From NCBI RefSeq assembly GCF_000002075.1, contig NW_004798057.1, positions 103,712-161,803 of the forward strand: 58,092 nucleotides of DNA, written 5' to 3'. The first letter of the stretch is position 1. Each line of letters begins with the position of its first letter. Positions 7,694 to 53,800 of the stretch are shown here, piece after piece. The DNA comes from Aplysia californica. Lineage: Eukaryota. Below the pieces are notes generated by a model, which was not told the origin of the DNA, did no database searches, and was given only the letters and a program-made list of their open reading frames with translations. Position numbers and translations under genes: made by a program.

Positions 7694-7725
<32 letters not shown>

Positions 7726-10700
7726 GAAAGAGAGAAACAACACAACAGACGCAGCCGCAGATCACAAGACTCACGTTTGACCTTGACCCTGTCTGGCACG
7801 ATGTGCCGCGGCTGGTCGTCAAAGGTTTTCCACAGTCCTGAGTTGTTCCACACGCCCTCCATGGTGATGTGAAAGTCCGACATCTGATGGCCAAACAGTT
7901 TCTGTCGACAGAAAACAGGGAGTGGTTTTTAGTTTTTGTAAGAGTTTTACAGCATTTGCAACACATTATGGTCATATAAGTTCTGAAGAATAGAGGTATT
8001 TGTTACAAGAGATAAATAAACAGGTAAAAGGTTTAGTTTAGTTTAGTTTTAGAAAGAGTTTTACTGCACTTGCAACACAATAAGGTCATATATGAATGCA
8101 CAAGATTAGAGGTGTTACAAGAGAGTAACAAACACAAAAAAAGGAGGAGAGATCAGGACGATAGATCATGTTTGCTAGGAAAGAAGGAGCAAACCACACC
8201 AAAGCACCCGCCAACCACCCACAGGGAGTAATTACAATGCACAGCTCAAGAAGGGCACACTATCGTATCAACGTTATTAGAATGCCCAATGTTCCATACA
8301 ACAGCTGTGCATTTCTACTGTAACCCATCTAAAAACCCAATTCTCAATAAGACAGAGGTGACATTGTATTTCATACAATTTAAATACTATATTATACAAA
8401 ATGGTTGGGAGAGAGTTTTGTCATTGAAGCCATCTAATTATGCTCAATGAAATATAAAACAGAGGTGACATTTTATTGTAGTCATATAAAAAAAAAAAAA
8501 TACTCCATGAACATTCCATTCGATAATGGTAAGATTGATAGTTTCTTTGAAATGTCAATGTTGTGCAACACAGCAGTTGCAAGACAGTAGTCTGCCAGAA
8601 GATGCAAGTTCTCCCCCCCCCCCCCCCCTCATCCCCCACCAAGTAAAGGGATGGGGCTGAAATCACTCACCAGTATGCGGCATTGCTCGGGGCCAAGCGT
8701 CTGTCCTTTCTCACACACTGTGTGTTCCTTGAGCAGGTGGATCACGCCTGAAACACACAGACACAGCAGGAATGTAATTAATTACACACGCAAACAGCAC
8801 GCAAAATAGCACACAAAGACAGTCCAGGGTTCCTTCCATGAACTCCCCACCAAATTCAAGGAGGTTTCAAGGAGAAGTTTGTTTAATTCAAGGAGATTTG
8901 GTCAACAAGTTCATGCAGAAAGCCTATTTCCGATAGGCCTACACTTGTCCAAAAGGAATTGCAGTTTCGAATTTCCTTTAAAAAAATTGTTCCTATCATT
9001 CTGCGAAATTCAAAGAGATTTTCCTTGAATGCAAATTCAAGAAGTTTTCAAGGACTCACTGAATTCAAGGAGGCCGCAAGAACCCTGAGTAACTCACATC
9101 TCATCCGAAAAGGCGCTCAATGAAAACTGTACATAACCTGACCAGGTAACAACTTTGGGCAAACCAAAGACCTGATCTTGACTTGTTCAAGTAAAAACCC
9201 TCTATCTGCAGCTGGTCTGTTACATCTGTGGCCACAGCACAGAGACATATTCTCGTTCCCTCCCCCTCCTCCTCCTCCCCCACCCCCAAAACTTGCAGGG
9301 GAAGAGGAAATTGTCTATCCCCTATACTGATGGCAAAGACTTTCTCCCTGCCATGACGGGGATCAAGGACTGGTGATGGGTCTCATTTAAATATTGAGAA
9401 ATGCCTAAGCGTCTCAAACAGCTTCTCCCAATCCAGCCAACCGTACCTGCCCGTGGTGGTCCCTGTCCTCACTGACACGGCTCTGGCGAGTGGCGAGTTG
9501 TTGGCGCCAACAAACCAACCCCCCCGTTTCCTAGAGGGATTAAAACAACAGGATGAGAGCAGGTGTGGCCCCACAAGGCGCAGGAGGCAGAACCCACCGA
9601 TGCGTGGTAGACGCTATGCTCCTCACTAACACACCCCTACTCTCCCTTGAGTGGGTGTCTAATCTGCCTAACACCTCTACTTCTTTTATCAACACACCCT
9701 CCGTGGCTGAGAAGGTACCAGCCAGTTTGAGAGTGTCTGGGTGCAGGGGATGGACCGAGCGGAATGCCTGACTTGCTTTCTGACCGTGTACCTCTTAGTA
9801 AAGGCACAACGACCCAGGACGTGACGATCCAATGCCTTTTCCACTTGGCCGATACCTCATGAAAGATTAGAAAATTTTAGCCAGTAGCCTTTAGTGGCGG
9901 CTAATGGGCAACGTGAACCCTACCGGAATTACACCGTCACAGGGCAGTTAGGTCTTTCCAGTCTCTTGAAAACCCCTTGTTCCCTCCTATCCTCAACATG
10001 AATGGCCCCTTCTCAGGGTGGGCAGGCAGTCCACAGACACCCCAGTCCACAATGCCACAACCCTGCCATGACCACTATCTCCATATAAACAAACGAGGGA
10101 TTTACATTTCCCCGATCACACTACCTCAACAAATGAGACAGTGAATGAGTTAACTTGAATTATGCTCCCCCCAACCACTATCTTAACGAGTCAGTGAGTT
10201 ACACACTATTGCCCCCTCCCCCCCCCAAAAAAAAAACCTCTTAGATTTGGTTTACTAAGAGTTTTGCAGCACTTGCAACACAATTAGGTCATATAAGTGT
10301 CGAAGAACAGATGTGTTACAAAAGAGTATCGTACACGAAAAAGGAGGACAGATAAGTACGATAAGATGTTTGAAACGAAAGAAGGAGCAAACCACACCAG
10401 AGCCCCCGCCAACCAACCCAACAACCCACCCACTCCCCCAACCTCCCACCCCTCCAGTTTCACCTCTCTTGAGCTGTGTGGGCAGTCCCAGTTGTCGTAG
10501 CTGGGGTTCGATCGAGTGCGTGAACTCTGTGAGCGGGCCCTCCTCCAGCACCACCGTCTGGCTAGCCACTGTGCCTGAGCGGGCGTAGTCCGGGATGTAC
10601 AGCTCCTCAAAGTACCTGCAGGGGGAGTGGGGGGGAGAAGAGGGGGTGGGGGGGGGGGGGGGGGAGAAACAGTGCATGATTCTATGCAAATGAAAAAGGT

Positions 10701-13700
10701 ACATATGTATTATCTGTCCTAACTTTCTCACTTTGTTATACAGTCGAGTCCGCTTAAACCGGAGACCTTTAACCCTTTGAGCCCTGACCTCCTGAGGCTA
10801 CCGTGCCTCTGCCTGAGCTCCTGAGCGATATATTACTAATATCCATTTTTTTTAAAGAAAAAAACAAACAAACACAAATAGAATTTAAAAAAGCAAACAT
10901 CCATAAGACCATCAGAATCCATATCCCACTCAGGGTAGTCCTCATCATTACCAGCCTCTAATTCAGAAAGATTTTTTTTAAAATCAATAACATCCTGCGT
11001 GTTAAACACTGTTTTCCGTGTGCATTTTGTCCAAGGCTGGCCGGGTCGGAGATAAGGTCTCGCTCACCAATGTACCAGTACCAGTGGCTAGGCATATGGA
11101 CAGTTCCACGCACCATAAGGCACAAAGGGTTAATCCTAAAACAGCGGGAAACCAAAAGAAAATAAAACCCCTGATATTTTTTCCCTTCTTTTCAAGCAAC
11201 CTCTTTTTACTAAAAACCTGCCTACACGGGGAATTTATAACTTTTTCTTGCTAAATCCAACCAAAACTGGGCTCTCGGCTTGTTTCTCTCTCACACTGGA
11301 TTTCCTCTATGGATATGATTAAACATGATCATTCAAATCAAGCTGTTTAGTTTTAGTAGGAGTTTTATGGCACTTGCAACACAATAAGATCAAATAAGTG
11401 CCGCAGAGCAGATGTGTTACAAGGAGGAGGATGAGAGATAAGGACGACAGATGTTTGATAGGAAAGAAGGAGCTAACCACACCAGAGCATCCACCAGCCA
11501 ACCACCCACCGACAGATGTTTGATAGGAAAGAAGGAGCAAACCACACCAGACGTCCACAGCACCCACTAACCACGCTCTTGACAAAGACAAACAGTTACA
11601 GTACAAAAAGCAGCAGCAGCAAAAGATCACCCTTAGCCTTACACTTACTTTAAGACTTCCTTCTCTGTGGCGTTGGTGAACAGGAGACCCATCTGGCCCT
11701 GCAGGTGCTGTGTCAGTTTGTGCAGGTTCTCTCTGTACTCCTCCTCCGCTGTACGACCCAGGGCCAGCATCATCACTTTGTTCTTGCCGAAAAAAAATCT
11801 AAGAGAAAAAAAAAAAGATGTTTTAGTTTAGTTTCAGTAGAGGTTTTACGGCGCTTGCAACTGCATAAGGTTATATGAGCGCCAGAAGTTTAGAGGTGTT
11901 AAAAGAGAGTAACAAACATAAAAAAAGAAGAAGGGGGAGATAAGGACGATAGATGTTTGATAGGAAAGGAGTAAACCACACCAGAGCACCCACCAACCAC
12001 CCACAAAAAAAGAGATGTGTGAGCATTAACCTCACTGGGACAAGACATAAATTTCTCATATATGGAAATAGATACATCATGATTATAGGGGTAGCTTTTA
12101 CAATTTAAAGTTTGAAATAATAAAAGGCATGTTATACTTAAAGAATATGGCATGAATAGAAAATGGACAGTGTCGATTTTTGGCCAATATCTCCATTTGT
12201 GGATTGCGAGAAGTAACCCATTTTTGTCAGCACACTTCACATATACAGTGATTAAAAACAACAACAAAAACCCGACAAAATATAAGGAAGTATTGATTTT
12301 TACAAAAGTCATGCTTTGACAGAGAAGTGGAAATCACACATGGTCAAAACAAGATTAAAACAGATGATAGATGATACAGACAAAGCAGAGTTCCATTACA
12401 ATGAAATGTTGGATGAATGTTTTAATTACATACAGTGTGTGCCTAACAAGAAAACACAATTTCCCTGAACTTTTCCTTTGTGTTCTACATTAAGCAATGT
12501 GTGCGCAGAGTGTTTATAGAGTGTGTGTACAGATGATGCATCATATGTGCGCAGTGAATATATACAGAGAGTGTGTCTGTGTGTGTTTTGTGTGTGTGTG
12601 TGTATTTTGTGCGCGTGTACTGTGTGTGTTTTTGTGTGTTCGTGTTTCTTTGTGCATGCACATGTGAGTGTGTGTTTGTGTGTGTGTGTGTGTGTATGTT
12701 TGTGTGTGCGTGTGTGTGTGTGTGCAGAACATGTACAACATAAGCACTGATGCAGATTGAGTGCAGTGTGGACATACTGAGAGTACAGTGTGCAGTGTGT
12801 GTAAACAGTGTGTTCGCAGTATGTGTAAAATGTGTGTCCCATGTGTGCAGTGGCTGCTTGGCATGTACAGTGTACGTGTGTACAATGCGCACAACTTGTG
12901 AGTATGTGTGCTATGTGTGCGTGCAGTGTGTGTTGAGGGTGCTTTTTGCTCAGAGTGTGTGTGTGTATACAAAGAACACGAAGTGTGAATGTGTGTGCAA
13001 ATGTGTGCTGCATGTGTGCAATGAGTGCAGCAGGTGCACAGAGTGCGTGTTGTGAGTGCGCTGTGTTTGTGTGGGTGAGTGCGTAATATGAACAAAGAGT
13101 GAGCTGTGTGTGTGTGTGTACATCTGCCAGGACACTGGGCCTACCTGCTGTGATTCCATTCTTGTCTGATCTCTTTGAGCTGCACATTACGCATGTTGTG
13201 AACTGAAAATGTGAAGATTCTAGCATACTGGTCCGCTGTTTCTCGTATCTGTCGACACCAAGACCACAAAAAAAGCTTTGACTTGAGATACAGAAAACAA
13301 AATCCAACTAGCATCAGCTACTAAAAAGAGTAAGGGATGGGGAAAAAATGAAATGGTCAGAAACAACAAAGGCACTGCAAGTTTTACTTTGTTTTAGTAA
13401 ATAAAGAGTTTTAAGGCACTTGCAACATATGATAATTAGGTCATGTAAGTGCCAAAGACTAAAAGTGCTACAAGCGAGTAACGAACACAAATAAAGAAAG
13501 ATAAAAATAACGGGTATTTGATAGGAAAGAAGGAGCAAACTACACAAAATAAAAGCACCCAGCAACCATCCGCAAAAGACAATTAAAAGTGGTGTTGTCC
13601 AAAAACCTGCACAAGAGAGAAACAAATATAATCATTATTGAATAATTTTCTGAGAGACACAACTGACAGCGGAACAAACCAACCTACACCAGAGCCAACG

Positions 13701-24400: not shown

Positions 24401-27400
24401 CATCCATATTTTCCCGACCTTTACAATCAGTAACTTTTTTATTTATGAACCGCTTATTAAAATTCTAGAAGCATAATTCTTAGAATTTAAAATTCTTTCT
24501 TAGGTACCTAATAAGAAAGGGCTAAAGCGAAAAATTAAATTTTCTTTGGCATTGCTAAGAGATGAAATCTATTGATGAGACCTAAGTTCTCTCAGCCAGC
24601 GTTCCCGGTAGGATCACTCGGGTCAGAGGATGCCGAGCAGACAATACTGCAAACATGTTTTCACCATGAATACAGTGGGGGAAGGGGAGTGTTAATCGAT
24701 AATGAAAATAAAGCTGTGTTTCATTTATAGCATGCAGAAACTTTCTAGAAATAAGTATGGAGACACGAATAACATCCTCTCATAAGTTAAGTTATTACGA
24801 GTGGCTATGCCTGTTCATTTAACCTTTTAGATGCTGTTGTTGTGAAGAACAATCTGGGGTTCGTAAGGAAAAAAATGTTGGTCTATTTCCTAATCTTTTG
24901 CTCAAAAGTTTTTCTTTTTACCAGCATAGTAGTTTTCAGACCCGTCAAATAGATTTTTTTATCAGGGAATATCGTTTTTTGTAAAATCATGATATTTTGA
25001 AAGATTTAAAAAAAAATGGAAGTCTTGTTTCCTGGTTATCCTCTCGAGTTCCTCATGTCTAAATGGGTCGGTTTGTTCCAATTTTTTAACGAAGATCTGA
25101 AATTACCAGCATAATACATTTTGAATGAGATGGATGTACGTGTCTGTTGAACCAACGCAGAAGGTTCTAGTAGTCCACAAACTCAAGCAGACTAGCACAC
25201 ACACTTTGGCTGTGTATATAGGGGACCTAGGGATGCTCAACCTGCTTGACTAACTTCATTTCTGTGTCACAACTACTATCAGAAACACAGGGGTACTGTA
25301 ATAATTGCACACATGCACACGAAGTTGGCAGTTGCAGACCTGCCACTCATCCCGATTTAGTCGGGATATCCCGATTTTTTGCCCCAAATCTCAAGCAATT
25401 TTCCCGATTTCGATGGTGTGTATCCCGATTTTTGTCCCAGTCTGCTGTTGCGTAGGATTTTTATTAAAACGTACTCTGCCTTCTCCTTTATCGCGGGAAG
25501 CACCCGTTGAACTTTTTGTCAGTAGGAACTCGAAGCACTATTTCCCGAAATATCGATGCCGCATTTAGTAGTTGACTCGCCCCAAGTTGTGTGTGATCTT
25601 TGCCCGCACTCAGAATTCTCCGATGATAGCCTGGTAACTGTTACAATTTGGGACATACAAATAATCGATAATATTTGTAGTTCCGCTGCTACTTTCAAAA
25701 CAAGCCTTGTCCGAGGTCTGGTAACTGCGTGTTCACACCAAACACTCGGACGAGCGACTGTCTTTCTAACCCTTACAGAACTACATGTAACTGTGCTGAC
25801 AAGACCAACATTCGGCCGATGTCGTTACTTTAGTCTGAACGCATTATGAGGGATAAGAGATTTGTTGGTACAATTGGTTGGTCGGCCGCTGTTGTTATCC
25901 AAGAGTACTAGACTAGAAGCGGAACGACTGTCGCTCATCTGATAGTTTTGTGTGAACGCGCAGTTAGTCGGAACCGTTAATAAAATTGTTTCAATCGCGC
26001 ATTCGCTTCATGTGACATGTCATCGCCATGTGAGTTCTGCGTGTCGGGGACCGTCCGTTGTCGGGGTCAACTTAAGTTCATGTATTTCGGGACTTATTGG
26101 TGGGGGGGGTATAGACACTTGGACTAGGAGTGCTTGACGTGATGCTTCAGGATTTACAAAAAATAATAACTCGCATGCGCGCGCACACACACACACACAC
26201 AAACACACACACAAACACGCGCGCTCGCGCGCGTGCGCACGCAAACAAACAAAGACACTCAGGGGGCATATAGGCCAAGTATTTTATGGACATCCGTGGA
26301 AAAATATTAAGTCAGCTTTAGCAGTCACCTTGGTGATTTGCTGTTGATCCCGATTTTTTTCACCAAATCCTGATTTTTTCTCCCTGAGATTCTGATTTTG
26401 AGGTTTCATAGAGTGGCAGGTCTGCAGTTGGCAGTTGGCATGTGTTCTGTGGAGTTATTTGCTCCTTTTTTCCTATCATCCCTGTCTCCCCTTCTTGTTC
26501 CTGTGTTTGTTTCTCTCTTGTAACACCTGAGCCTGAGCCGTTTTTCACTCAACTACCATTACAGCCTGACAGTTTTGGGGTATATTGAATCGTCTGCAAA
26601 AGCTAAGAAAATTTTTTTAAAATGCCACGAAAGAAAGAAAGGAATGCTCTCGTAGAAAAAGAGAACTACATCGAATGTGCCTTAATAGTTTTTATTTTAT
26701 CAATGAATTCAATTTTTTGAAATGGCACGTATTTATTTGCGCCCGTGTTGTAATCTATCGTAATGCGGGGTTGGCTAAGTGTGTTACAGCTAAAAGAGTA
26801 TATTGCACATAATTATAACGTCTCCAAATTTTTCACGATTTGAAACAAGTAGGTCAACTGATGGCTCGTAGTGTCCCGTTGCTTGTAACGGAAAAACACT
26901 GGAGATGTCGATTGATAAAGTGTGTCCCGTAAATACAAGTGGTTGGGCCACAGAGTGGTTAACCTTGATGACCAATCACATGGGCATGAGCCATGCCATT
27001 TTCACTTATCCAATAGTGAATCTCAAGATCTATGTTGATTTCATTGCAGTCCCAAAATTTATAGCTTTCCACTTCTGACCAGAGTTCTCTGCTCATCTTT
27101 TGATACATCACTGTGATGTGACTGGGCCAATTAAAATCCTGTCTGTCCTTCAAATTTGGGGTATATATGGAGATGAAACACAAGTAGACAAGTATCATTT
27201 ATGGCGCAGTGTTCATGGAAGCAAGAGCACCAAGTTCACACTTTGATGTGATGCTGTCTGATGCAGCATTGTCACTCATTGTGTAGGCTCTGCCCGCCCA
27301 GCATGTGATGTGTTTAGGTGGGGGGCTCAAATGCAAGTGGGATGTTTGGGAAAAACACGCGTTGATGAGTTCACACCTTGCCATGATCCTGTGTGGGGCA

Positions 27401-29480
27401 ATCATTTGACATTTATACCACTCATAGAGACTTGCTTCGGTAATTTGATCAACATGGCTTCTTTTCTTCTTCAATTTCAAGGAGGGCAAGAAAAACTTGG
27501 TCCTCTTCGCTGTTTCAATATTTCCTAGATGATTGTCAACATTAAAGTGTTGGGAATGCAAAAGTTGTGGCAATTTTCACTTCTGAATGTTTTTTTTTTT
27601 AGTGTTTGCCTTATCTACCTCTTATAGCCATTATAATAAGAACTGCAAGGTTAGATACAAACTTTTCTAGTGTTAGTGCTGATCCAAGTTATGCCTAGTA
27701 GAGGGTTTGTGTAGTAAAGGCTAGTGGAAGGTTAGTGACAGTGGACATGACATTCTAGATCCGGGCTTTGTAGTTTCACTTTTAGAAACAATTTTTAAAA
27801 AGTGATTTTTGACTCATTTGCAAAAGAAAAAAAATGATAGTTTATCTAAAAAAATTTCTTTACATTGTGCTGTATATGTTTTATTGCCTTTTTGTATGGA
27901 AAGCTTAATTGTTGCGTAATGGTGAATGTCATATTGAGTTTTTAAATTGGTGCCTGAAACGACTGGCATTCTTTGGATGTTTAGCTGTGTTCTTTGCTAG
28001 AGAAACTTAAGTAAACCTAAAACACCTTTGATGTCATGAAATACATCGTGTACTGTGCTCATGTGTATGTGAACTAGCCTTGCAGATATAGGCAATGACT
28101 TATATTGAAGATCGTGCAACAGACAAACATTTGTCACCCTTGCGTCACTTTAAACAATCTGGAGGCTTATTGTGTGGTAAATGGAGGCAAATAGTACACA
28201 GGCGATACCTCTGGTCTGTTTTCAATACATACCGTCTCTTTATGTTTCTCTAACTTGGAAGTGAGTAAGATTTGATACTTCTGATAGTGGGACTTAATTA
28301 TTTATTATATGTTTTTGTTCTGTCTTCCAACAGGAGTTGTTGTCAAAACACTTGATCCAGAAGGCCCAGGATGACAGTTCCCACTCTGATAGCCATGTGT
28401 TCTACCTCAAAATGCAGGGAGACTACTACCGCTACCTGTCTGAGGTGTCAATTGGAGAAGATAGGAAAGGTACAATATTTTAATCTTTTCCTCTTGCTTG
28501 TCAGACTATGTTTTTGCTCTTTTCAGACTAGGTCTCTTGTATTCTGGCTTGAAACATGTTCACAATGCAACAGTACTTGTGTGAGTGAATGAAGTCTTTT
28601 GCTTCTTGGACAGAGTGAGAAAAAATATAGATGTAGTCCTAGAGTGTATCTAGTATGAGCATATTTAGTGAGTGAATAAATAATAATATATTTAATGGGG
28701 GTGTACACATGTTAGATATATGTGATCTGCAGGTATGTATTTGAAAAAACTAACGATTGTAAGACAAAACTAAATTTTAAGATTGTATGGAGTCATTGCT
28801 GTGTTATTGCCTGTATTTGTTGTTGGATGATATAGTCTGTGTTTCAGTTGATAAAAAGAGAACAGATTTTGACTGATGTTAATTCTTGTTCTAGTTTGGT
28901 AGCAAGAAGAAAATGATCATGTCATGTATTTGTGACACATACATGCATATTTCTACTTTCAGCCAATGTAACCAAATCAAATGAGGCCTACAGAAAAGCC
29001 ACAGAGATTGCGAAAGAGAAGATGCAACCAACACATCCTATTCGACTAGGGTTGGCCCTCAACTTCTCTGTGTTTTACTATGAAATCATGAATGAGCCAG
29101 ATGAGGCTTGCAAGTTGGCAAAATTAGTAAGTGTCCATTCTCGAAAATATTGTTGTGATTTCGTCGTCGTTTGTTGTAAGATTTTATAAGGGTTTGTTTT
29201 AGGACAGAATGTCTTTCCCCTGTTTCTGTATTGATTAGGCATGAAAAGACAGGTGATAAGTGCGACTTGGTCAGAATAGATATAAATCAGGACACTATAA
29301 GGATAGATTGAATATTTGATGGGTACCGAAACTAGACATGAGGTCATAAGAAAGAGTGCAGTGTTTCTGAAACTATGGCAGTTTTGGACTTGTCTAAAAT
29401 GTAATTATAATCAACCTTGTAATGAAAAGTGGGCATTCTCATACAGTGAAAAGATATGACTTCGATTAAAGAGGACATTC

Positions 29481-29511
<31 letters not shown>

Positions 29512-32392
29512 ACCCCGCGTGGCATCTTGCCTAGAGATCTGTTTCAATCAAATCTAGAATTCTGTTCCAAATTTTATTCTTGGTCAGATACTTCAAGTGT
29601 ATGTTACCTGGCTCATAAATTCCAGAAGATGCTTTGAGGTGGACTGTACCACTGTGAATGAACTTTGGTGAGCCCAGTAATCAGTGGTCCCTGATACGTG
29701 CGATCCTCATATGAGGTCATGTCATGAGATGACAGTGAGATTGAAGCAATTTCACTGTCTGGTCTTGACTATGGACCCAACTAACCAGAACTTGTTATTG
29801 CAAGAAGTATGTTCTCGAAGTGACAGCGGGCTACAAAAGTTGAAAGTCTGCAAATTATAACTGTTAGTTATCAGGCGGTTATCTGAGATTTCTGGGTGGT
29901 AACAAAGACGAAAGGAGATGAATATGAAATTCTCTGTTGAAATGGGATGAGCCAAGAGAATACTAAGAACAAAACTTGCAAAAAGTGAATTTATTGGTCT
30001 TAGATTTCGTTTTTTAGTATTTAGAGAAAATTGTTTTCCGGGTCTTTCCTGTGAAAATTTTGCGACTAATAAATACGCAGGGGATTCCTGGGTTTCTGCG
30101 ATTTTTTTTTTCAAATTCTTTAGGCGTTTTCGAGTATCGATGATTGTTATTTAAAATATGCCTGCATTCCCAGGGTCCCGTGGATTTCCCAGGATTCAAG
30201 GGGCTCTAGTCAACTTGTAATACCATTGTTTAGGATAGTTATATTTCTGGGGAGGCTGTCGCCAAACGCCAAATGGATTTTATGGCCGTAAATGGGTATT
30301 GCTGATATGTGGCCTGTGGATGAAAAGTTACTTAACAAGATTGTTTGCCTTACCACATTGTACAATTTGAAATAAGGCTATTTTTAAAATTTATTGTTGA
30401 CTTGCCATCATAGATATTAGAATACAAAGGAACTCGCCTTGTCTGTGTCTTGAACATCAATGTGCTTAGTTTTGATCTATGAAATCTCCTTTTTCACTGA
30501 GCTCCTTATAGTGCAAGTTTCCTTTTGCCGTGGAGCATACCCCTAGTAACATCCCCACCCCTCCCCCAGTTTTCTATATTTTCCACATACTGTCAGTCAG
30601 ATTTTCGGAGGGCCAATTATTTATTCTGTTCAATGTTTTATTGTGAGCAGATGTTGGGATTTGGGGTGCTATTTTTTTTGGAAACGTTGAATTCTAAATT
30701 TGAAAAAAGCATGATGATCATTCTGTGCTTCTTCGGTTTCAGAAAAGTTTAAAAAGCTCAGAGGTAATAAAACTATAACATTCATTCTGGGGACAAAGTA
30801 TTTTTATGTGCGTAGAAAATGTAGTAGTCTTGTGCTCTTAAAATACTTTTTGTGGAAAAAGGTTGACTTGTATGTTGTTTTCTATTTCAGGCTTTCGATG
30901 ATGCCATTGCCCAGTTAGATCAGTTGAACGAAGAATCCTACAAAGACAGCACATTGATAATGCAGCTGTTGCGAGATAATCTCACGGTAAGAACCGTTGT
31001 GTTGTGTTGATAGAGTTGAAGTGATAGCAAAGGTGTAGTGGTCCATGACATTCCTCACAGGATAATGGATGGTTTTGTCTTAAATCTTTTACATTTTTTC
31101 CCTTAAAGTCTCTGTTTACTATTGCTGAAAATAGGATGACGGGGAGAAATTTGTAGATGGATGATCCAGTTGCTTCTCTTTTGGCCCTGCTGGTAACCCC
31201 TTTTGTCTTTAAATATACTGTTCGAATAAATATGATTATTTTGTAACGAGATGCTGTTTTGTTTTCTACTGTGGTCCTCTTGGATGATCTACTGTTGCAG
31301 GATCTTGGTCCCACTGTTGGTTGCCTGTCAGGGGCAGTATTTTGGTTGCAAATGTAATTGTATTTATTCGAACTGTAAATTTAAAGTAATAAGTTTAGGA
31401 TTGGAATTTGGAAATGGCCTCTTCAAGTTTTTCAATGGCTAATACAGTATCTTCAATGTGGGTTGCATGCACTTAAAATGTTGACGGGTTTAGTGCCTTT
31501 CTAAGACTGTCCCTCCTTCGCTGAAATTAGAACACTGCCTATCCACATTAGGACATCCTTTTTCTCTAGGGTAAGCTCCAGGGGTATGAAATACTTACCT
31601 GGACTCCCCTAAAAATTGAGCAGGGCTGCCCACCATTCCAAATTTGGCGGAATCTTTATGATTTTTATTCAGTTTTACGAAAATACGACCGTAATGCCCC
31701 TGGGCCCTGAATCTGATTTTTTGAAAAATGTTGACTACTCCAGTAACCCACTGCTAATCTTCCTGGTGTTATGTGAGGAGAAAATTTTAGAGATAGAAAA
31801 ACTACCAGGCCTGGACAGTCTACTTTACTACATCTCGTGCAGTTGTCTTTAACAGTACATTGTGTTAACACCCTCTTTGCACTTAACTTTGCCCTTACAA
31901 CAGCATGGGACTGTAGAATTGCCAAAACCAGGAGTAAGGCAAACATAAGATTGACAAAGTGTTAGAAGATTCCTGCCTTTTTGTATCATCACGCCTTTGT
32001 ATACGTCACATGTATACTAAACTGGACTACAAACCTCTGTCCTTGACCCCCCATTGAAGATTTTTCCATGGCAACATGTATGTTTACTAATTTTCTATCT
32101 GTTGATTTCTAAAACACGTGTTGGTGAGTGGGCAGACTTGATTGATCCTGATGCTTCAACAATTGAAGGAAACTAGTCTTAAGATATCAATTTAATTTTT
32201 AAAAAAAAGAAAATTAAGTTAGATACAAATTTCCAAAAGCAGTGTGTTTTCATTTTACTTTTTATATAGTGTTTGAGAAAATGGTTTTTGTGAGACCTCT
32301 GATTCAGTTGTGTTTTCTTTTTTTCTTTTATTTTTCAGCTCTGGACATCTGATGCGCAGGCAGAAGTGGACCAAGAGGCCGAAAACCAGTGA
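21163..32392 (+). CDS. 14-3-3 protein (zeta/theta-type, non-epsilon), 5 coding exons, 259 aa
   Basis: Exons 21163-21492, 28334-28469, 28963-29126, 30891-30986, 32339-32392, all GT-AG, 780 nt. Signature motifs [73 protein letters not shown]. Confidence 0.97.
22203..24557. mobile_element. Non-autonomous TIR element with a 7-bp TSD (contains the piggyBac MITE)
   Basis: TIR TAGCAAGGCCA / TGGCATTGCTA; AGAGATG duplicated at 22196-22202 and 24558-24564; internal ~35-bp direct and inverted repeats at 23670-24180. Confidence 0.7.
22812..23526. mobile_element. piggyBac-type MITE
   Basis: TTAA-CACATTACACCCTAA ... TTAGGGTGTAATGTG-TTAA (15-bp perfect TIR). Confidence 0.85.
25335..26424. mobile_element. 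hAT-like non-autonomous element
   Basis: 14-bp TIR CAGACCTGCCACTC; CAGTTG direct repeat on both flanks; subterminal TCCCGATTT repeats. Confidence 0.78.
28334..28469 (+). CDS. 14-3-3 coding exon 2
   Basis: [45 protein letters not shown]. Confidence 0.93.
28963..29126 (+). CDS. 14-3-3 coding exon 3
   Basis: [55 protein letters not shown]. Confidence 0.95.
30891..30986 (+). CDS. 14-3-3 coding exon 4
   Basis: [32 protein letters not shown]. Confidence 0.95.
32339..32392 (+). CDS. 14-3-3 terminal coding exon
   Basis: Strong polypyrimidine tract plus CAG; [17 protein letters not shown]. Confidence 0.93.
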   Translation, partial: LWTSDAQAEVDQEAENQ

Positions 32393-41129: not shown

Positions 41130-41165
<36 letters not shown>

Positions 41166-41961: not shown

Positions 41962-43913
41962 ATATAAAACGTCTGTACAACTAAATGAGATTACGTCTGG
42001 ACAGAAGCATCTTCCTAGGTATTTCTGCAGAAAAATGCAACAAAGAGATGAAAATCTTGAGTTTCGAATTGCATCAATGCATACAGTCGACTTTGGACGA
42101 GTTGATGTGATTTCGTCGGGGTGTGAAAAAAGATCAACTCATCCGAAGTTCGACTTAATTAACCGTTGAGATCTGTAAAGAAGAAGAGGAGCGCCTGGGA
42201 CCGGAGGAAAAGATAAATTTCACCGAAGATCAACACAAGTTGAGTCCATTGTATTATAAAATATAAAATTATAGTTTTGTACATGTACATGTGTGTGCGT
42301 GTGTGAGAGAGAGAAGGGGGGCGGGGGAGAAGGGGGGCGGGGAAGAATTGCATGAGAAAAGTCTCCCGGAATAGCCGATTCTGCTATCAACCAAGCAATT
42401 TACTGAGTTGCAATAGATGACAGGCAGTCGGAAGTGGTCGCTTGGAAAGCCACGTTGCTGAGTGCTCTTCCTTTTAATAAATATATAACTATCATCAAAC
42501 AGATTCCATTCCCTATTCCCGACATTTCAAATTGGGCTTTTAGTACAGTGAGTCCGTTTTTCTACCCCTCCCAAACACACACACCCATTCAATGTCTTTG
42601 TATTCAATATATTTCATAACCCCAGTCGGGGAATTCTTCATAAGAAAGTCGATAACACGTTATCGGCCACAGTGACCCCCATCCCCAAGGGAAGTCACCA
42701 AATAATATATCAAATAAATGAGATGATTGTGTACCTCCCTCCCTCCCTTTGCTCAGGGTCACATAAACGCACACTCCATTATAAACACATGCCATGGACC
42801 CCCCCCCCCCCCCCCCCCCCCAGCACTGTGCGTTTAGGCAGAGACTACTGTATGCATGTTATGAGTGTCAGATAGTATTATTATACATGTACAGTATCTT
42901 ATTAAATCTTCCCTACTGGAATGATTTCATATCCACTTCCTCTTCAAATGAAAAAAAAAAGTTTCTTATACTTAAAGACGGTATTGGTACCGCCCTATCT
43001 GTCATTAAACCAGACACATTTTAATTTTATGAACTTGCAAAAGTGTTTTAGTTTTAGTAGAGGTTTTAAGACGCTCGCAACTGCATAAGGTCATATGGGC
43101 GCCAAGGGGTGGATGTCAACAGAGAAGTCCTTACAGGGAATCAGACTTACTCTGCTCACCTCTCTAGCTTGCAACAGCACAAAGTCTGCTTCGACTATCA
43201 AGGCACCCCGGAAATAGAGGGTCACAAGAGAGTGACAAACATAAAAAAGAAGTAGAGGAAAATTGACAATAGTAAGGATTAGGAAAGAAAAAGCAGCAGT
43301 TCCCTGTTGTAGATCAGGCACAGTTATGAGTAGATGAATCAGCCCATTTACAATTCTACAGTGCATGATCGAGAATTGTCCCCCCTTTGGGAATGGCCTA
43401 AAGACACTTCAGTCAGTGGCACCACCCCAGGTGGGCTTGCTGTGCATGTAACAACAGTGCAAACACATGTTAAGTAGAAGTAGAAGGAGTCAGAAAATTA
43501 CATTTTATGACAAGGATTATCCATCAATAATTTCTCAACTAAAAGAAAAAGAAATATCACTTTGGAAAAAGTTCTCCTGACAATATGAAGCAACTCGGGG
43601 CAAAAGAAAAAGTGCCATTTTTCGAAAAACAAAAATGTTTCCATTGGTGAAGAGAGCTGACCAAGGCTTCAACTTCAAGTCTGAGGTTCACAAGCCACAG
43701 TCAACGGAACAGATTATCAATATCATGGACGTTTGTGAAAGGAATTGAGAGTCACAACGCTGAGCCGGTTACAAGCATGCTTCCCGGGAAGCTGAGAATG
43801 TTTCTGAGTCTTCTATGGTCTGCTGGGGTAATAATATAGCGCAAAGAGCTAGCTTTCGAGTGGGGACATGCGCTATACAAAAGCTATTTATTGTTTATTA
43901 TTATCATTAAGTA

Positions 43914-44770: not shown

Positions 44771-44780
44771 CACGACGGAC

Positions 44781-44898
44781 TCACGAGCTGGCGCCGGCCA
44801 CCAGGAGAACGTTGTAGGAGGAGAAGCTGAGGTAGGAGATGAGCGCCGACTTGGTGGGGAACGCGCCCAGCAGCTCCGGGGACGAGTGACCCTCTGCC
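44781..44898 (-). CDS. TAF5L: TAF5L terminal coding exon
   Basis: AEGHSSPELLGAFPTKSALISYLSFSSYNVLLVAGASS*. Confidence 0.9.
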
Positions 44899-47800
44899 CT
44901 GTGAGTGGACCAACGGTGGGGGACATTAGTACTTGGTTAAGTACGGTAATATATGTTTTTTATAGTAGAGGGTTTTATGGCGCTCGCAACTGCATAAGGT
45001 CATATGAGTGCCAAGGGGTGGGAGTCAACAGAGAAGTCTTTACAGGGAATCAGACTTAGACAGCTCACCTCTCTAGCTTCAACAGCACAAGGACTGCTTC
45101 GACTATCAAGGCACCCTGGAAAAAGCGGGTCACAAGAGAGCGATAAACATACAAAAGAAGTAGAAGACAATGACAATAGTAAGGATCAGGAAAGAAAAAG
45201 GAGCAGTTCTCTGTTTTAGATCAGGCACAGTTATGAGAGTGACAGGAATCAGCCCATTTACAATTCTACTATGCTTGAACGAGAAATGTCCCCCCCTTTG
45301 GGATTGGCCTAAAGACACTACAGTCAGTGGCACTGCCCCGGGGGGTAAGTACGGTAAGTGGATGACCGGTGGGAACATTAGCACATAGCAACAGAAACAC
45401 TTGAAACAGTGAGAGCATTAGTATACAGCAGGAACAACTGGGAACATCAGAACATAGGAACAGCAAAAACAATGGGAACATGAGTTCAGAACAACAGAAA
45501 CAGTGAGAATATTAGTACATAACAGGAAAAATTGGGAACATCAGTACTTTAGTATTAGTACATGATAGCCTACCAAGTGGACGAACACAGTGGGAACATG
45601 AGTACATAGCAAAATAAACAGTAGTGGGAACATCAGTAGGCCTACATGACAACAGTCAGGAAAAACTGGGAACAGAAACAGTGAGAGTATAGCAGTGGGA
45701 ACAACAGTACATAGCAAGTGGACGAATAGTGTGTACATCAGTACATAGCAAACAGAGCAGTCGACTCACTGCGGTGTGTACATGGCATTGTTGACGACCC
45801 ACAGACATGCATGCACATACACAGGGACACACACACACACACACAGGCAATTAGTGTGTTCACAGACAGACACATACACACGTTGTCAGCGTGTTCACAG
45901 ACAAACAGAGCACAGTCGACTCACTGAGGCGTGTCTGTGGCTTTGTTGACGTCCCACAGACGCACACAGCAGTCGGCGCCACCCGACGCCAGCACGGAGC
46001 TATTCTCGTCAAAGGCCAGGGCATAGACCGTGTCGCTGTGACCTCGCAGCTCCTTCATGACGCGGCCCGTGCGCAGGTCCCACACGCGCAGACGGCGGTC
46101 CTCACCTGAGAGTCAGTTTCAGTTTTAGTAAGTGTGTTTTACGGCACTTGCAACACAATAAGGTCATATAATATAAGTGCCGAATATTAGAGATGTTACA
46201 AGAGAGTAACAAACACTAAAAAAAAAAGGAGGAGAGATCAGGACGATAGATTATAATAATAGGACAGAAAGAGCAAACCACACCAGAGCACCCACCAACC
46301 ACCCGCTGAGAGTCAAATACATGCGCATGCAAAAAGAAAGACAGAAATAACAGAGGGGAGGATAAGAAACAGGGCCTACAAAAAGCACACTCCAACCCCC
46401 TCCCCTCTTTGAAAATATCCAAATTCGTCTTTAAAGCAAAAACTTTGTTTTCTTGGAAACAACATTCTGTTGTTCGGCTCTCCTGTCAAAACTGCGTCAT
46501 ATATTACTGTACTTTAAAAAAATGACGGCATCCACGCTACACTACCGCCTACACCACCCACCCACACTCACCTGCCGAGGCCAACAGCTTCCCGTCGGGG
46601 GAGAAGGCCAGAGCCAGCACCGAGCCCCGGTGACCTTGTAGCAGACGCACAGAGCGGGCCTCCGTGAGGCTCCAGAAGCGCACGGTCTTGTCTCCCGAGC
46701 CAGAGGCCAGGTAGCTGTTGTTGGGGTGGAACTCCACGCACTGGAAAACAAAAAACAAAATAAAAAACAGAAATAAAAAAATCCAACAAAACAGTAATAC
46801 AAAACAACACAATTAGCATCTCCTTTATCATTCTTTGTCCATCAAGGAAATTGTTAATCTCGCAATCCAAGAACGGAGATATCGGCTGAAAATCGACACA
46901 GAGGTCATTATTTATAGATTTTCAACTGACGCCATTTTCTTCAAGTCAACCGTGTCTTTCACTACTTTCAGTATTCCACACTTACAAATTGTACAAACTC
47001 CACCTATAAAATTGATGTATGAATTTCCATTAGGCTGGAATCCGAGAAGTAACTCATTTTGTCAGCACACCTCCCATATGGTCGCTTTTAAGCACAAGGG
47101 GGCTATCCCGAAAAATGCTATTTTGAGAAAATCGAAGGTAAAGTTTTTGACTCTTATTCAGCTTCTTTAAAAGACAAGGAGAGTTTTCTCTATAACCAAA
47201 CAAATATACACACCAAAGAAACCAAACTTCTCCTATAGGTAGGACAGTGCCCACTTTTGGTGTAGGTCATGATTTCTGGAAACCCCCAAAATCTGGGTTA
47301 GCCCACCTGTCCTTTTAAAAGCGACCATGTATTCGGCCAAGCCGAGGAGACTCACATCTACGTCCATGGTGTGCCCCACGTAGGAGCGCAGCGGGAACGT
47401 CCTCTCCGTGGTCCACAGTTTGGCCGTCGTGTCGTGGGAGCTGCTGGCAAACCACGTGTCTGTTGAGCTGGACACACATAAGGCAGGGGAGAAAAAATAA
47501 CTAATAGTAAAAGTAATTATAGTAATAATAGATAGCATATTATGTATACCGTAATTTCCTGTTGAACAGCAAAAACTCTGTGCGCTTTACTCCAGCAGAC
47601 CTGATAGCATTTTGAAACACTCTCAACTTCCTGGGAAGCTTACACAGTACAGTGCAAGCTGCTATTTATAGGCACAAAAATAGTAAGATACTGACAAGAT
47701 CTTTTGCTGTCTACCGATGGGTGGAAAAAGGGAAAGAAATTTTCACCTACAAGTGGCGCCCATTGCTTGTTCACTCTTATCTGTTCACGCGAAAAAAATT

Positions 47801-50800
47801 CTAGCTCATTTATTAATTTCCCTTCTATTCGCACGAAACTTTGCAACAAGCACAGTGGAGACCCACCTGACACTGACGTCCCAGACAGCTGAACTATGAC
47901 CTTTGTAGAGGCACACGTTGCTCTGGGTGGCCATGTCCCACAACCTCACTGCGGAGAACGTACACACACATAGACAAGGCAAGATTAAACACAATATTTT
48001 TAGGTACCAGAAACTAAATTTTCAAAGTAATTGTATGCCAAATTTATCAGTTCCATTTGAAAGGCCTATATCCACTGAGCATTTTGGTACCATTCTTTAA
48101 CTTCTCAGTCAATTTTTAAGAAAATGGTAGTTGTTTAAAATTTGATCAAATTTGTTAAAGTCAGTCACTGGCTGCAACCCCATGTTTGACAGACAATAAA
48201 AGAGTACCAAGAGCACTAAACATCTCCACATTAACTGAGTACAATCACTATAACAAATATATGGAGCCTAATTTTTTTCAAGACTGTGAGATCAGTACTT
48301 TATCGCCTCAAACACGATGATCTGTCGTTATTTCGACAAAAACACAGAGCGTTGACCCGGCCGGCGCCGCACCGGGCCCCGCGGCGAGCGAGTCGGCTCT
48401 ATACTGTAGTGTACCCCGCGTGCGGGGTCACATGCTTTCTGAGTCTCGCGGAAGGATTGATAAAAAATAATTCCAAGTTGATTACTTTATTTTAATAGGA
48501 AATAAGCTGATCTTTTATTAAATATATTTTATAAGCCGGTATTTTACATAAGTGATCTTTAAACATTTTAACAGTATTTTTAAAAGCTTTTTATTTAAAC
48601 GCCAAAGGCAAAACACATACCACTGGAAAGCCCGTTTTAAGCTCTACAGTTCTCCGCCAATGAAAAGACGGTATTTAATCATTCTTCGTTCCGCGAAGCA
48701 TTTGAATGAACCCGTGTCAATTTTTCAACCGGCCGACCACGCATTCCGACTGCGAGGGGCTTCGCTTTCGTCGGCGATTCTCCAGCTCCTACTAATCGGA
48801 CATATAAACAACTTACACCATTGTAACGAGGAAAAGCGGAACTTTTACAAGGTGTAAGGCATTTGGTGTTTTATAGCGAAAGAGCAAAGAAACAGCGATC
48901 GGAATTACCCCGATTTCACCGATACCACGCGGTCGGAAGGCCGCGAGTGCCCGCGAGGCCGTGTTTACGCTACCTAATATTTTTGTAGTTTTCTATTCGG
49001 TTATTTTTACGGCACTTGCAATACAATTAAATCATATATAAGCGTTGAGCATTAGAGATGTTACATTTACATATGAGTTACAAACACAAAAGAAGGAAAG
49101 ATGAGGACGTTAGATGTTAGTTAAGAAAGAAGGAGCAAGCCACAACAGAGAGAGCACCCACCTAACAAACACACCAATATATTTTAATTTTTTTTTTTTT
49201 TAGATAAACGGGGTAAACATAGCCATGAACATATAATATGGGGAAAAGGGTTACCGTACACATCTAGCTGTAGCTGTAAGTGTTTAATGGCTTCATCGAC
49301 ATAAACTGGATCACTGTCACACTACCTGAACTGAATGTTTATTTGACATTTGNNNNNNNNNNNNNNNNNNNNNNNNNNNNNNNNNNNNNNNNNNNNNNNN
49401 NNNNNNNNNNNNNNNNNNNNNNNNNNNNNNNNNNNNNNNNNNNNNNNNNNNNNNNNNNNNNNNNNNNNNNNNNNNNNNNNNNNNNNNNNNNNNNNNNNNN
49501 NNNNNNNNNNNNNNNNNNNNNNNNNNNNNNNGACCAGAGGAATCCTCGGAGCAGGACAACAGGTGACTATTGGAGTTGTACAGGAAGCGACTTCTGTACA
49601 CGGGGCCTCGGTGACCCACCAGCTTGGCCGTCTCTGTGCTCTGGCCACTTCTGAAACAAAATGCGAACTTACATCATGAAAAACAGTTCAGTTTAGTCTA
49701 GTTTTTCACTCAAGTAGACAGTAGAACATTGACAAGATAAGTAACATTTTGTGCTGTGAAAGTAAAAAAGCATGGGGCAGTGCATGGCGAAAAACACAGG
49801 GGAGAAAGTAAAGAAGTAGGACCTGCCAATGGTGTTCTTTAACTGTCTCAGGAAACACTTTTCAGCTGCCCAGTGAGAGATTTGTTCTATAGGGTAAGGG
49901 TGCAAGCGCTGTGCCAGAACCACAACCTAGAGGACAAGGTGTCCCAATTTCGGGACACACACGCACAAACATGCACACACACGCATATATGCATGCAAAT
50001 GTGCACACCCATTTACACACACACTCTTCCCTCCCACATCCTCTCTTCCACACACATCTGTGCACATAACCATGATAATATAATAGTATGCTAGCACTCA
50101 CAAACGGGCTCACAGTCATGTGTATAATAAAAATAAAAAGTAATCAAAAACAGCAATATAACTTAAAAGCACAGTGAGGCAACGTGGTGAAATCAGGCGC
50201 TCGTCAAAATAATGACAGTGAAGAAAATGGCATTTTTCCGCAGGTTCGGGAATTTTTATCGAATTTTTTTTTTTTTTCAGCTCAATACCTTCCATATCCA
50301 TCAAAGAACACATAAACTAAAGGCATAAATAGTGTAAATTCACTGTTCCCAGAATCTCAAACTAAGGACATAACTAAACTTTGGCGATCACTTTCTAGCT
50401 TGTTTTACCTCTGAGACCAGGGGACCCCCACCTATTTCAATCGCCAAAATCTCAACCTGTATAAAATTTAAGATAAATGGATATTTTTTCCATCGAAAGC
50501 AAGACAAATGAAAAAGCTTTACGGCGATACCAATAACTCAACATGCCCAAAAATAGACAAGCACCTGATTCCACTGCTTTGTGACACATATAATTACGGT
50601 TCCCCAGACCCATTAGAAACGCTGACCTTTTGTTCATCCTCTCCTTGATCTCGTCCTCGCTAAACAGGATGTGGTCCGCCCCTAAGACGATGCGACTGAC
50701 GTCCGTGTCTGCGGGCGCGCGGCGGAACACGTCGGGCTCGAGGTTCCAAATGGAGATGCTGGCGTCCTCGAAACACCCGCTCAGCTTCTTCTTGTCCGGG

Positions 50801-53800
50801 GAGATGGTGGAGGAACACAGGCTGAAAGCCACACAATCACACGACTCATACAGTAAACAGGATAATATTCGCGATGACCGCATTATTGATATATTTAAAT
50901 GTAAGTTTAGTATAGTTTTAGTAGAGGTTTTACGGCGCTCGCAACTGCATAAGGTCATTATGAGAGCCAGAAGATAGAGTTATAAGGACGATAGATGTTT
51001 TGATAGGAAAGAAGAAGCAAACCACCCCAGAGCACCCGCCAACCACCCACATTTAAATGTTAACATTCCCAACAATCAAGTGACTCACACAGTGAGAGGT
51101 AATGTTCCCCACGGTATTGTTTTAGTTACAGTTTTACGGCACTTGCAACACAATCAGGTCATATAAGTGCCAAAGATTAGAGTGAGGTGTTACCTGAGAG
51201 TAACAAACAAATTATTCCGAAGAATTCTTAAATAACTTAAAAACTAAAATTATTTTTAAAGTCCAGAAATAAAATAAGTACTATAAACCCAGTGAACAAG
51301 CTAAAACGTCTGCACTGTCAGACGAAAAAATTACATGTACACAGTGTGCTCCACCCCCCCCACTCACCCTTTAGTTCAGTTTTAGTTTTAGTAAGAGTTT
51401 TACGGCACTTGCAACACGATAAGGTCATATAAGTGCCGAAGATTAGAGGTGTTACAAGAGAGTAACAAACATAAAAAAGAAGGAGGAGAGATCAGGACGA
51501 TAGATGTTTGATAGGAAAGAAGGAGCAAACCACACCAGAGCACCCGCCAACCACCCACCCACTCACCCTTGGTAGGTGTTGAGAAACGTGAAGAAACAGA
51601 TAGAAGGCAGGCAGGGAGGTAATCCTCGCACAGCCGAGATGGCCGCGCTCAGCTCTTCCTCCAGACTCTGTTCCTGCTGCGGCTGCTCCCCCTGGCTAGC
51701 CTCCGTCTTCACGGTGACGTCTGTTGGCGTGTCGCCCACAGAGGTCGTCTCTGTGTCCATGTCGGAGAAAGGCTGCAGCTCTAGCTGCCCGCTGGACTCG
51801 GACTTGGTGACTGGAGGTATGGGGAGGGGATACAGGATGTTTGTCAAACTTCCCTGCCGTTATTTCTAAAAGTACACTATATATTTGTGTGTGTCGTATG
51901 CCTAGAGAAAGGTCCCAGATGTTGGAAATTTTTGTTTTTGTTTTAGTAAGGTTTTACGGTCCTCGCAACTGCCTAAGGTCATATGAGCGCCAAGGGGTGG
52001 ATGTCAACAGAGAAATCCAAATGGGGAATCAGGCTTACTCTGATCTCCTCTCTAGCCTCAACAGCACAAAGTCTGCTTCGACTATCAAGGAATCCCCGGA
52101 AATAGCAATTCACAAGAGTGACAAACATACATAAGAGGTAGAGGAAAATGATGATAGTAAGGATGAGGAGAGAAAAAGCAGCAGTTCATTGATAATCAGC
52201 CCATTTACAATTCTACTGTGCGTAAGAACATGTTAATATCCCCCCTCTGGGAATGGCCTACACACAACTTCGGTCAGTAGTACTGCCCTGGTGGGGAGAG
52301 GACACAGAAGATGTTTGTCAAACTGCCCTGCCGTTATTTCTATAAGAGCAATATATATGTGTGTTGCCTGCCTGGAGAAAGGACCCAGTTGTCACAATCT
52401 AGTAGCAAATTCAATGTTGAACACGCTGATTAAAAGAAAAAATTCAAATATCTTGAGTAGCTTTTAAAGATATGCCACATTTTGTAAACTAAAATGTTTC
52501 TAAAAATCTGTTAACAAATCAAATCTTAAATTTCTTTAAGAAAAACAAAAACAACCCCCCCCCCCCAACTCAAACAAACCCTGAAATAAAAAACTAATAC
52601 CAAAATCATTCCAAACAATTCTTCAATAACACAAATTTGAAATCTATTTATGTACCATAAGTACATCTGGGGTTCTTCAAATTACCCCCCCCCCCAAAAA
52701 AAAAATCCAACTAAACCCCAGAGGGCTCAAATTTTATTGAGAGTACAAAGCAGTTCTTGGAAAGAAAAGAGCCTGAAGCACCTACCATTAACTTTGACAC
52801 ATTGGTTGAAGACCTGCAACATGATCATGCTGTCATCAGTCTGAAAAAACAAAAAGAAAACAAAAAACATATCTTTGACATTTTTGATTTCTGTAATTGC
52901 TATTTTAAGTTTATGTAAGAGTTTTACAGGACCTGCAACACGATAAGGGCATAAATAAGCTCCAGAGATTAGATGTGTTACAAGAATGAATGGTAAACAA
53001 AACATATAATTATCAGACCCACTCCCCCCCCCCCTCCCAAAAGAAGATGGCTCTAAAAAAAACCATCCTCCTGCTCTGAAATTTTTTTTTTAAACAAACC
53101 AAATTTTTATTTTTATACAGACAATATAAACAATTTAAAACAAAAAATTAAAGTCAGAAAGTAAAGCAGCTTGTCAGTGTGGTCGTCTATCTGTACCCAT
53201 GTGTTGTAGTATGAGTGTAAGAAGGAGCCAACGAGCAGCAGTAGAAAGGCTGCAGAAAGAGTCAGGAGCCCAGAGGAGGGGGTGGGGGCAGAAAGTGGAG
53301 ATGAAAGCAGAAGACAGAACATTGCTAGAGAGCAGGAAAGGAGGTGAAAGGGGACAATTTTAGAGAAGAAGATTTTTCCCGTCACTACACGGATTCGGAC
53401 CCGCGACCTTTGAATGAGAGGCCAACACCTTAATCTCTAGGCCACGAGAGCCCCCATAGTATGTGTGTGTCAGTGATGTCATCTTTCTGTACCAATGTGT
53501 TGTAGCATGTGTTTGTCAGAGAACACCGTACCTTGAGAAAATGCATCAGATAGTCCATAGTGTCCGGCTCCACGCTCAGCAAGAACCTGTGCTCCCTGCA
53601 AGAGATTATAAAACGACAGTTAATTCAGTCAAGTTTGGTAAGAATTTTACAGCACTTACTGCATAAGGTCCTATTAGTGTGGGTTGTAAGCGTTTTTTTT
53701 ATGCCCCACTAAAAACAATTACTGCAATAGTTCCCTTTTGTTATAATTGTTTTGATTCTGAGAGAGAAAGAGAGAGAGAGACAGAGAAAGAGAGAGAGAG

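Follow-up and report, generated by a model that had tools for sequence, protein, structure and literature searches.

Retroposon copies close to splice junctions at an Aplysia californica locus: a possible exon-flank insertion bias combined with a splicing filter

Why should copies of a small retroposon lie within a few tens of bases of splice junctions, when retrotransposons are normally depleted beside exons? This question is raised by a stretch of 58,092 nucleotides (nt) of Aplysia californica DNA (contig NW_004798057.1:103,712-161,803, forward strand, assembly GCF_000002075.1), hereafter the window, which holds three genes: MRTO4 (7238..15830, minus strand, eight coding exons), 14-3-3 zeta (21163..32392, plus strand, five coding exons) and TAF5L (44781..57020, minus strand, 14 coding exons). 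Copies of a short interspersed element (SINE) occupy 15 of their 24 introns and represent 17 independent intronic events, tandem units within one target-site duplication (TSD) being counted once. The explanation that we favor, with a probability of about one half, is an insertion bias toward exon flanks in transcribed genes, combined with a splicing filter acting on antisense and exonic copies. The underlying skew toward intron ends is real but modest, and it is a single-window signal.

The position of each event was expressed as u, the distance to the nearer junction divided by half of the element-free intron length, for which a uniform null has a mean of 0.5. Over all 17 events the mean u is 0.316 (p=0.004; leave-one-out 0.0008-0.010), and the end-skew is found in MRTO4 alone (p=0.024) as well as in TAF5L alone (p=0.026). 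With intron length controlled, placement in the window is hence not uniform within introns (p~0.004). Expressed as distances over the 24 introns, seven of the 17 events fall within 35 nt of a junction, against 6.6% of intron sequence, 11 within 100 nt against 19%, and 15 within 150 nt against 28%, the 35- and 150-nt thresholds being post hoc. All position and age tests were chosen after the data had been seen and rest on the same few copies.

A first-pass annotation of this DNA had reported that element tails sit just upstream of acceptors and heads just downstream of donors. Its distances proved accurate: tail-to-acceptor distances measure 22, 22, 10, 28, 51, 59, 81, 116 and 132 nt (previously 24, 22, 10, 35, 56, 60, 80, 120 and 130), and head-to-donor distances 9 and 70 nt (previously 10 and 75), with a third of 27 or 43 nt depending on where the G-rich head is taken to start (previously 44). 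The host introns of these copies are 330-1716 nt long, as against the 0.3-1.7 kilobases (kb) given earlier. The list was selective, as it held 12 of the 17 intronic events. These 12 alone give p=0.0002. The five omitted events, at 7596, 26427, 48984, 51113 and 54625, have nearest-junction distances of 106, 1778, 360, 143 and 22 nt, respectively, and taken together are uniformly placed (p=0.66). The pairing of tails with acceptors and of heads with donors is seen, but it is no separate pattern, being forced by the sense orientation of 16 of the 17 copies. Donors and acceptors are both approached; of the 17 events, 11 are closer to the acceptor than to the donor (p=0.33), and acceptor-specific placement was rejected on this count.

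The junctions from which these distances are taken are sound, because the spliced gene models equal named Aplysia californica proteins: TAF5L is identical over 602/602 amino acids, 14-3-3 over 259/259, and MRTO4 over 255/255 of isoform X2, which is without the first 26 residues. Gene models and junction counts refer to coding exons. The first MRTO4 intron, which contains no element copy, rests on our model alone. Among the 24 coding introns, 23 are GT-AG and one is GC-AG, and every reading frame is open, the models having been set by coordinate. Pfam backed eight of the 11 exons tested, the others giving one unrelated sub-cutoff match and two no match. The GC-AG intron is TAF5L intron 2 (54937-55550), and a weak donor is present in MRTO4 intron 1.

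In MRTO4, six events occur, all on the minus strand. Intron 7 contains an old tail fragment (7596..7668), 106 nt from the donor and 209 nt from the acceptor. In intron 6, a tandem (7924..8222) that combines a full unit (8034-8222) with a 3' half (7924-8030) is enclosed in a single TSD of 7-9 nt and places its tail 22 nt from the acceptor. Short SINEs are also found in intron 5 (10241..10436), with the head 27-43 nt from the donor, in intron 4 (11345..11578), with a duplicated head and 70 nt from the donor, and in intron 3 (11821..12004), with its tail 22 nt from the acceptor. The TSD of this last copy, ~13-14 nt long, is the pyrimidine tract itself, a duplication already pointed out in the first-pass annotation and confirmed by TSD inspection. 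A diverged short SINE (13381..13573) lies in intron 2, 132 nt from tail to acceptor. The 14-3-3 gene carries only an old, tailless, sense fragment in the middle of intron 1 (26427..26555, plus strand), 1778 nt from the acceptor.

TAF5L carries the remaining events, all but one on the minus strand. A long copy of ~390 nt occupies intron 13 (44950..45342; TSD of 12-15 nt; 51 nt from tail to acceptor), and a young short SINE intron 12 (46116..46305; 10-nt TSD at 46106-46115 and 46306-46315). Intron 9 holds an old short SINE (48984..49174), 360 nt from the donor, with a gap of Ns in between, and 1035 nt from the acceptor. An internally deleted short SINE (50903..51050), flanked by a 10-nt TSD, lies with its tail 81 nt from the intron 7 acceptor; a 3' half copy (51113..51229) occupies the middle of the same intron. 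The least diverged short SINE follows (51372..51557; 13-nt TSD at 51558-51570 and 51359-51371). A second long intronic copy is found in intron 6 (51927..52292), between the two halves of a ~100-nt duplication (52293-52392 and 51821-51922). Older remains consist of a 3' fragment in intron 5 (52900..53006), 59 nt from tail to acceptor, and a tail fragment 28 nt from the acceptor of intron 4 (53624..53699). The sole antisense intronic copy (54625..54795, plus strand) is in intron 3, its tail 22 nt from the donor. In TAF5L intron 8 (49651-49800, minus strand), three CTRRA units (R, purine) ending 36 nt before the acceptor possibly represent a decayed copy and were excluded from counts.

Eight further insertions are extragenic, bringing the total to ~25 across 58 kb. 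Between 14-3-3 and TAF5L, those at 36254-36897 and 37693-37761 are on the plus strand, and those at 39829-40135 (tandem), 40401-40766 (long), 41190-41336 and 43044-43431 (long) on the minus strand. A pair at 1170-1358 and 2089-2188 (minus strand) lies 5-6 kb past the MRTO4 3' end, on the MRTO4 strand. The copy at 36254 is split by one member of a repeat of ~420-450 nt, similar to miniature inverted-repeat transposable elements, present in three copies (36387-36850, 41505-41946 and 50174-50593). An AATAAA at 40135-40160 (minus strand) immediately precedes the TSD flanking the 39829-40135 tandem, where a 3' cleavage site is expected; it was not seen at the other extragenic copies.

Target-site duplications record where the DNA was cut. 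They are clear in seven of the 17 intronic events (7-15 nt, and one of ~100 nt) and in about four of the eight extragenic ones. In five of the seven intronic copies with a clear TSD, one cut falls at most 13 nt from a junction, where 0.78 was expected (P=0.0003, post hoc threshold). The TSD of the 51372 copy contains the donor and the last four exon bases, so that the tail-side cut fell within the exon; judged from this arrangement, the copy would be an exonic insertion which survived because the duplication rebuilt the donor. At the 46116 copy, the end of the TSD coincides with the acceptor AG. The ~100-nt duplication at the 51927 copy, far longer than the other TSDs, abuts both ends of the copy and ends 10 nt from the acceptor. 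Long TSDs were considered as a general cause of the larger distances and rejected, since only the 51927 copy has one: at the 13381 copy, a test for a long TSD scored at the null maximum, with a noisy null whose random draws could include the true flank, and the duplication near the 50903 copy is not its TSD.

The age of the copies bears on how this placement arose. Divergence from the consensus increases with absolute distance to the junction (rho 0.62, p=0.014, n=15), younger copies being nearer, and so does nearest-neighbour divergence (rho 0.72, p=0.003, n=15). The seven youngest copies lie 9, 10, 22, 22, 22, 70 and 143 nt from a junction, with a mean u of 0.21 (p=0.003), while the eight oldest have a mean u of 0.42, compatible with uniform placement (p=0.21).

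Orientation is strongly biased: 16 of the 17 intronic copies are sense to the host gene (p=0.0003). In the nine near-full copies, the sense strand contains 1-5 AG dinucleotides and the antisense strand 18-27, including TTTAG repeats; host introns contain 5.2 AG per 100 nt. Selection on splicing is the likely explanation, as antisense copies would bring acceptors together with a purine-rich body. Sense copies can by contrast occupy the AG-exclusion zone. In the single antisense copy (54625), the acceptors of the tail are 26 and 38 nt from the donor. The usual minimal animal intron is longer than this, and these acceptors are likely too close to the donor for use.

The first-pass annotation had also suggested that the (CTAAAA)n/TACTAAA tail acts as a portable branch point and the GGGTGG head as an intronic enhancer. 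The enhancer found support in none of the tests made. The branch-point proposal survives in part: the tail lies at -12 to -50 in four of the 17 copies, where it may explain survival, and outside this window in the other 13, so that it does not explain enrichment. In MRTO4 introns 3 and 6 and TAF5L intron 12, the sole branch-like words at -12 to -50 belong to the element, and in the fourth intron with a tail in this window the element supplies two of three such words. When the empty sites were rebuilt, a displaced native word was recovered at -31 in MRTO4 intron 3 and at -25 in MRTO4 intron 6, that is, at two of three sites. Judging from these motifs, the tail plausibly stands in as branch point in those introns.

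Taken together, these observations would fit the following sequence of events. Insertion would favor DNA flanking the exons of transcribed genes, a bias possibly common to other repeats. This bias would be centered on exons themselves, exonic insertions being lost unless, as may have occurred for the 51372 and 46116 copies, the TSD rebuilds the splice site. Antisense copies would then be purged, since their (TTTAG)n repeats and purine-rich body would create a cryptic exon, and the splicing-neutral sense strand would let copies persist even in the branch-point and pyrimidine zone. In the three or four copies that displaced the native branch region, CTRA words of the tail would be used as stand-in branch point. 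The tail would thus allow survival near acceptors, without being the cause of the copies being there.

Several observations weigh against this interpretation. It comes from one window and 17 events, in which the pattern had been noticed before testing. When introns are assumed to have been half of today's length at insertion, the end-skew becomes unremarkable (P=0.42; P=0.09 for the subset with a clear TSD), and the age trend weakens when relative position u replaces absolute distance (rho 0.50, p=0.058, and rho 0.53, p=0.044). Other repeats of these introns, five in number and unrelated to the element, are skewed as well, at 33-107 nt from a junction (mean u 0.25, p=0.026). The 14-3-3 gene, with eight coding junctions, has no copy near any of them and carries one fragment in 10.4 kb, as compared to 16 events in 18.1 kb for the other two genes (p=0.005). 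With respect to the filter, the antisense copy still has YAG trinucleotides at 93-180 nt, and all eight extragenic insertions follow the direction of the nearest upstream gene (p=0.008). As to the branch point, a branch-like word is also missing at -12 to -50 from 7 of the 20 introns in which no tail occupies that region, which makes the motif test weak.

The rival that survives best, which we nonetheless consider unlikely, supposes no real bias at all: insertion was random into once-short introns that were later inflated, and small numbers and post hoc noticing did the rest. The half-length simulation speaks for it, since introns at most half as long as today reproduce the end-skew, as does the equal skew of unrelated repeats; moreover, most of the flanking sequence can be screened for repeats only with a repeat library. 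TAF5L intron 7 also contains an old local duplication (~55 nt) of acceptor-proximal sequence (50826-50880 and 51060-51110), which would have moved the 51113 copy away from the exon. Yet growth predicts that the oldest copies lie nearest the ends and the youngest are nearest, so that later growth alone does not match the data: in simulations combining random insertion and growth, both the skew and the age trend were obtained in at most 1/3000 runs at each of five growth rates. Masking the repeats detectable in the window keeps the skew (mean-p 0.0025; the mask also removes TSD matches), and orientation is left unexplained by this rival.

Less probable again is a family-specific tether, in which the ribonucleoprotein of a Nimb long interspersed element (LINE) would be drawn to splice sites on nascent transcripts and would nick the template strand, giving closeness and sense orientation without selection. 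Two TSDs that touch or span a junction and the ~100-nt duplication ending 10 nt from another would be expected under this model, as would the absence of a fixed target motif that could explain position: among 12 junctions, none was found, and the 10 that start with A in the sense of the element reflect a weak bias which does not explain placement. Short and long copies, which have a common tail and different heads, are both close, with only two intronic long copies to judge from. The extragenic copies, all in gene direction, point the same way. Their strand switches at ~38-39 kb, the same place as the T/A skew switch; cryptic-acceptor selection explains their orientation poorly, and they are the best hint of transcription-coupled insertion, barring unannotated exons or genes there.

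Against a tether, other repeats are close to junctions as well. The five controls were limited to repeats either represented more than once in the window or identifiable by eye, with element copies removed first; their ends were supported by alignment (mean u 0.25; 0.22 with generous ends set by eye), except for a tRNA-like copy whose ends were set by eye. Their placement is statistically indistinguishable from that of the element (Mann-Whitney p=0.5), although within 30 nt seven of 17 element copies compare with none of the five controls (Fisher p=0.11). Their skew fits a shared bias but equally a general growth artefact. Together with the empty 14-3-3 junctions, it weighs against a dedicated tether, leaving a general exon-flank bias or a growth effect. 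CpG depletion was rejected as a cause of the sparing of 14-3-3, in whose introns it was not seen (observed/expected 0.69, against 0.41 and 0.57 in the other two genes). In addition, the strand asymmetry in AG accounts for orientation without a tether, and one young antisense copy is present. Of the earlier suggestion that integration is tethered to spliceosomes or exon nucleosomes, an insertion bias is thus backed by the age trend and the cut positions, while an element-specific tether is disfavored by the similar controls, and spliceosome and nucleosome are inseparable in these data. A constant distance from exon midpoints, considered as the mark of nucleosome-centered insertion, was neither backed nor ruled out (60-238 nt in 13 copies; exon length against distance, rho -0.19, p=0.54). 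Doubtful to the same degree as the tether is a bolder form of it, in which I/Nimb machinery would seek out splice junctions in transcribed genes and insert, in sense orientation, a SINE invisible to the spliceosome (AG-poor, with a branch-like tail and a donor-like GT head), perhaps released from excised introns in place of having a promoter, which would make it a splice-site-targeted, intron-born retroposon.

Selection against mid-intron sense copies is improbable. Under this hypothesis, ACTAAA in the tail would be a weak signal for polyadenylation that does harm where no splice site close by shields it. For LP-SINE tails, PMC4758252 (section 10) cites this motif as a poly(A) variant that is functional, and the farthest copy (26427) is tailless; control repeats without such a tail are also skewed, however, and copies with a tail are still found 729-1493 nt from the next acceptor. 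Least probable of all is that the tail, as a portable branch point, and the head, as an intronic enhancer, were positively selected, as proposed at first: the element does supply the sole branch-like words of three introns and two of three in a fourth, but 13 of the 17 copies are not in the branch window, acceptors show no excess, these conserved housekeeping introns were already spliced before insertion, older copies are farther and not closer, and the tail of the antisense copy lies by a donor.

What, then, is the element? Profile searches distinguish two families, one of ~185 nt (short) and one of ~390 nt (long, four copies), which have a middle block and the final ~65 nt in common and differ in their heads. 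The common 3' end consists of a hairpin followed by a (CTAAAA)n tail. Across 17 tails the consensus hairpin comprises 11 pairs, three of them with two-sided changes (changes shared by subfamilies being counted repeatedly), and its folding z-scores range from -3.9 to -0.6 in five tails. The 5' start is fixed: of the 17 short units in which a head was listed, about 11 begin at one base. Aligned by eye and unscored, the 3' end resembles that of a bivalve I/Nimb LINE (PMC11481361, supplementary file 4, panel C) over two blocks, of 8 nt and 12 nt, whose order is the same in both. By this 3' homology, the 3' stem-loop with its tandem-repeat tail and the variable TSDs, the element is placed, as far as sequence comparison goes, among the I/Nimb-tailed SINEs; it is a non-autonomous retroposon, which a Nimb LINE would mobilise by target-primed reverse transcription.

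Other identities were rejected. ARAGORN called no tRNA in the element, and a scan for the RNA polymerase III B box gave four sites in the window, none inside the element, so that a tRNA-derived SINE, whose head with A and B boxes was not found, does not account for it. Rfam returned no family at gathering score, and its matches to one short and one long copy, two in all, were at chance level; no snoRNA homology was found in the body among the curated Rfam families covered, against a snoRNA-derived retroposon. Nor is it an introner, all 17 copies sitting within larger introns while the proteins use native junctions. No report of this Aplysia family was found in the literature, most subscription papers being outside the search, and the family may already be catalogued in repeat databases. 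Two tRNA-like heads with B-box words, at 53368-53462 and 17400-17520 (minus strand), which gave no ARAGORN call, are probably ordinary tRNA-SINE fragments.

Known systems resemble the Aplysia element in part. The I/Nimb-mobilised SINEs of molluscs, such as BivaV-SINE1_RuDe with the S.constricta_0 I/Nimb LINE (PMC11481361), have similar 3' blocks, a tandem-repeat tail and variable TSDs, whereas no tRNA head was detected in Aplysia. For bivalve SINEs, accumulation in and near genes was reported (PMC11481361); that study counts whole features, and in its available text the word 'splice' does not occur and no junction distances are reported. Mollusc LP-SINEs (PMC4758252) likewise have a 5' end that is fixed and lacks a small-RNA head, as well as TSDs and an ACTAAA tandem tail, and would be transcribed by RNA polymerase II; their first ~70 nt are homologous to the 5' untranslated region of Nimb-17_LMi, and the Aplysia families named there are the tRNA-headed CORE and Nin SINEs. 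Human Alu shows a comparable sense bias near exons, ascribed to antisense cryptic acceptors, but mammalian SINEs are depleted less than 100 nt from exons, chiefly at acceptors (PMC3088655), where 11 of 17 events of the Aplysia element lie within 100 nt. The integrase of human immunodeficiency virus type 1 (HIV-1) with LEDGF offers a precedent for integration linked to splicing and targeted to highly spliced genes; this is a retroviral system with a gene-level bias and equal density in exons and introns (PMC4647561), in contrast to an element without long terminal repeats (non-LTR) acting at a scale of tens of bases. Finally, introners and other TSD-made splice sites also involve duplication of a donor or acceptor, as at the 51372 and 46116 copies, while the Aplysia copies sit in existing introns and make no new one.

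No description of insertion or targeting by a non-LTR element close to splice junctions was found, with most subscription papers outside the search. The Aplysia pattern is opposite to the mammalian depletion zone. If true, an accumulation of the youngest SINE copies within ~25 nt of splice sites, in some cases with duplication of the site, would reflect either a new non-LTR targeting rule or a general accessibility of exon flanks in mollusc gene bodies, and would provide numerous natural test cases of how branch points are replaced and introns grow. If the signal is instead the geometry of intron growth, the element is an ordinary SINE whose orientation is filtered as in Alu. At ~25 insertions per 58 kb, copies of the family are likely numerous enough for its distribution to be tested across the whole public Aplysia assembly.

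Other features of the window deserve mention. Most of TAF5L intron 13 between 45368 and 45925 is made of degenerate ~34-nt tandem repeats, and near 45763-45800 the intron also contains a second version of the end of the upstream exon, together with its donor. A repeat of ~190 nt is present in five copies and both orientations at 37056-39793, where two convergent genes meet. Just past the MRTO4 3' end, an acidic open frame of ~100 codons (6609-7005, minus strand) is possibly a transposon remnant or an unannotated exon.

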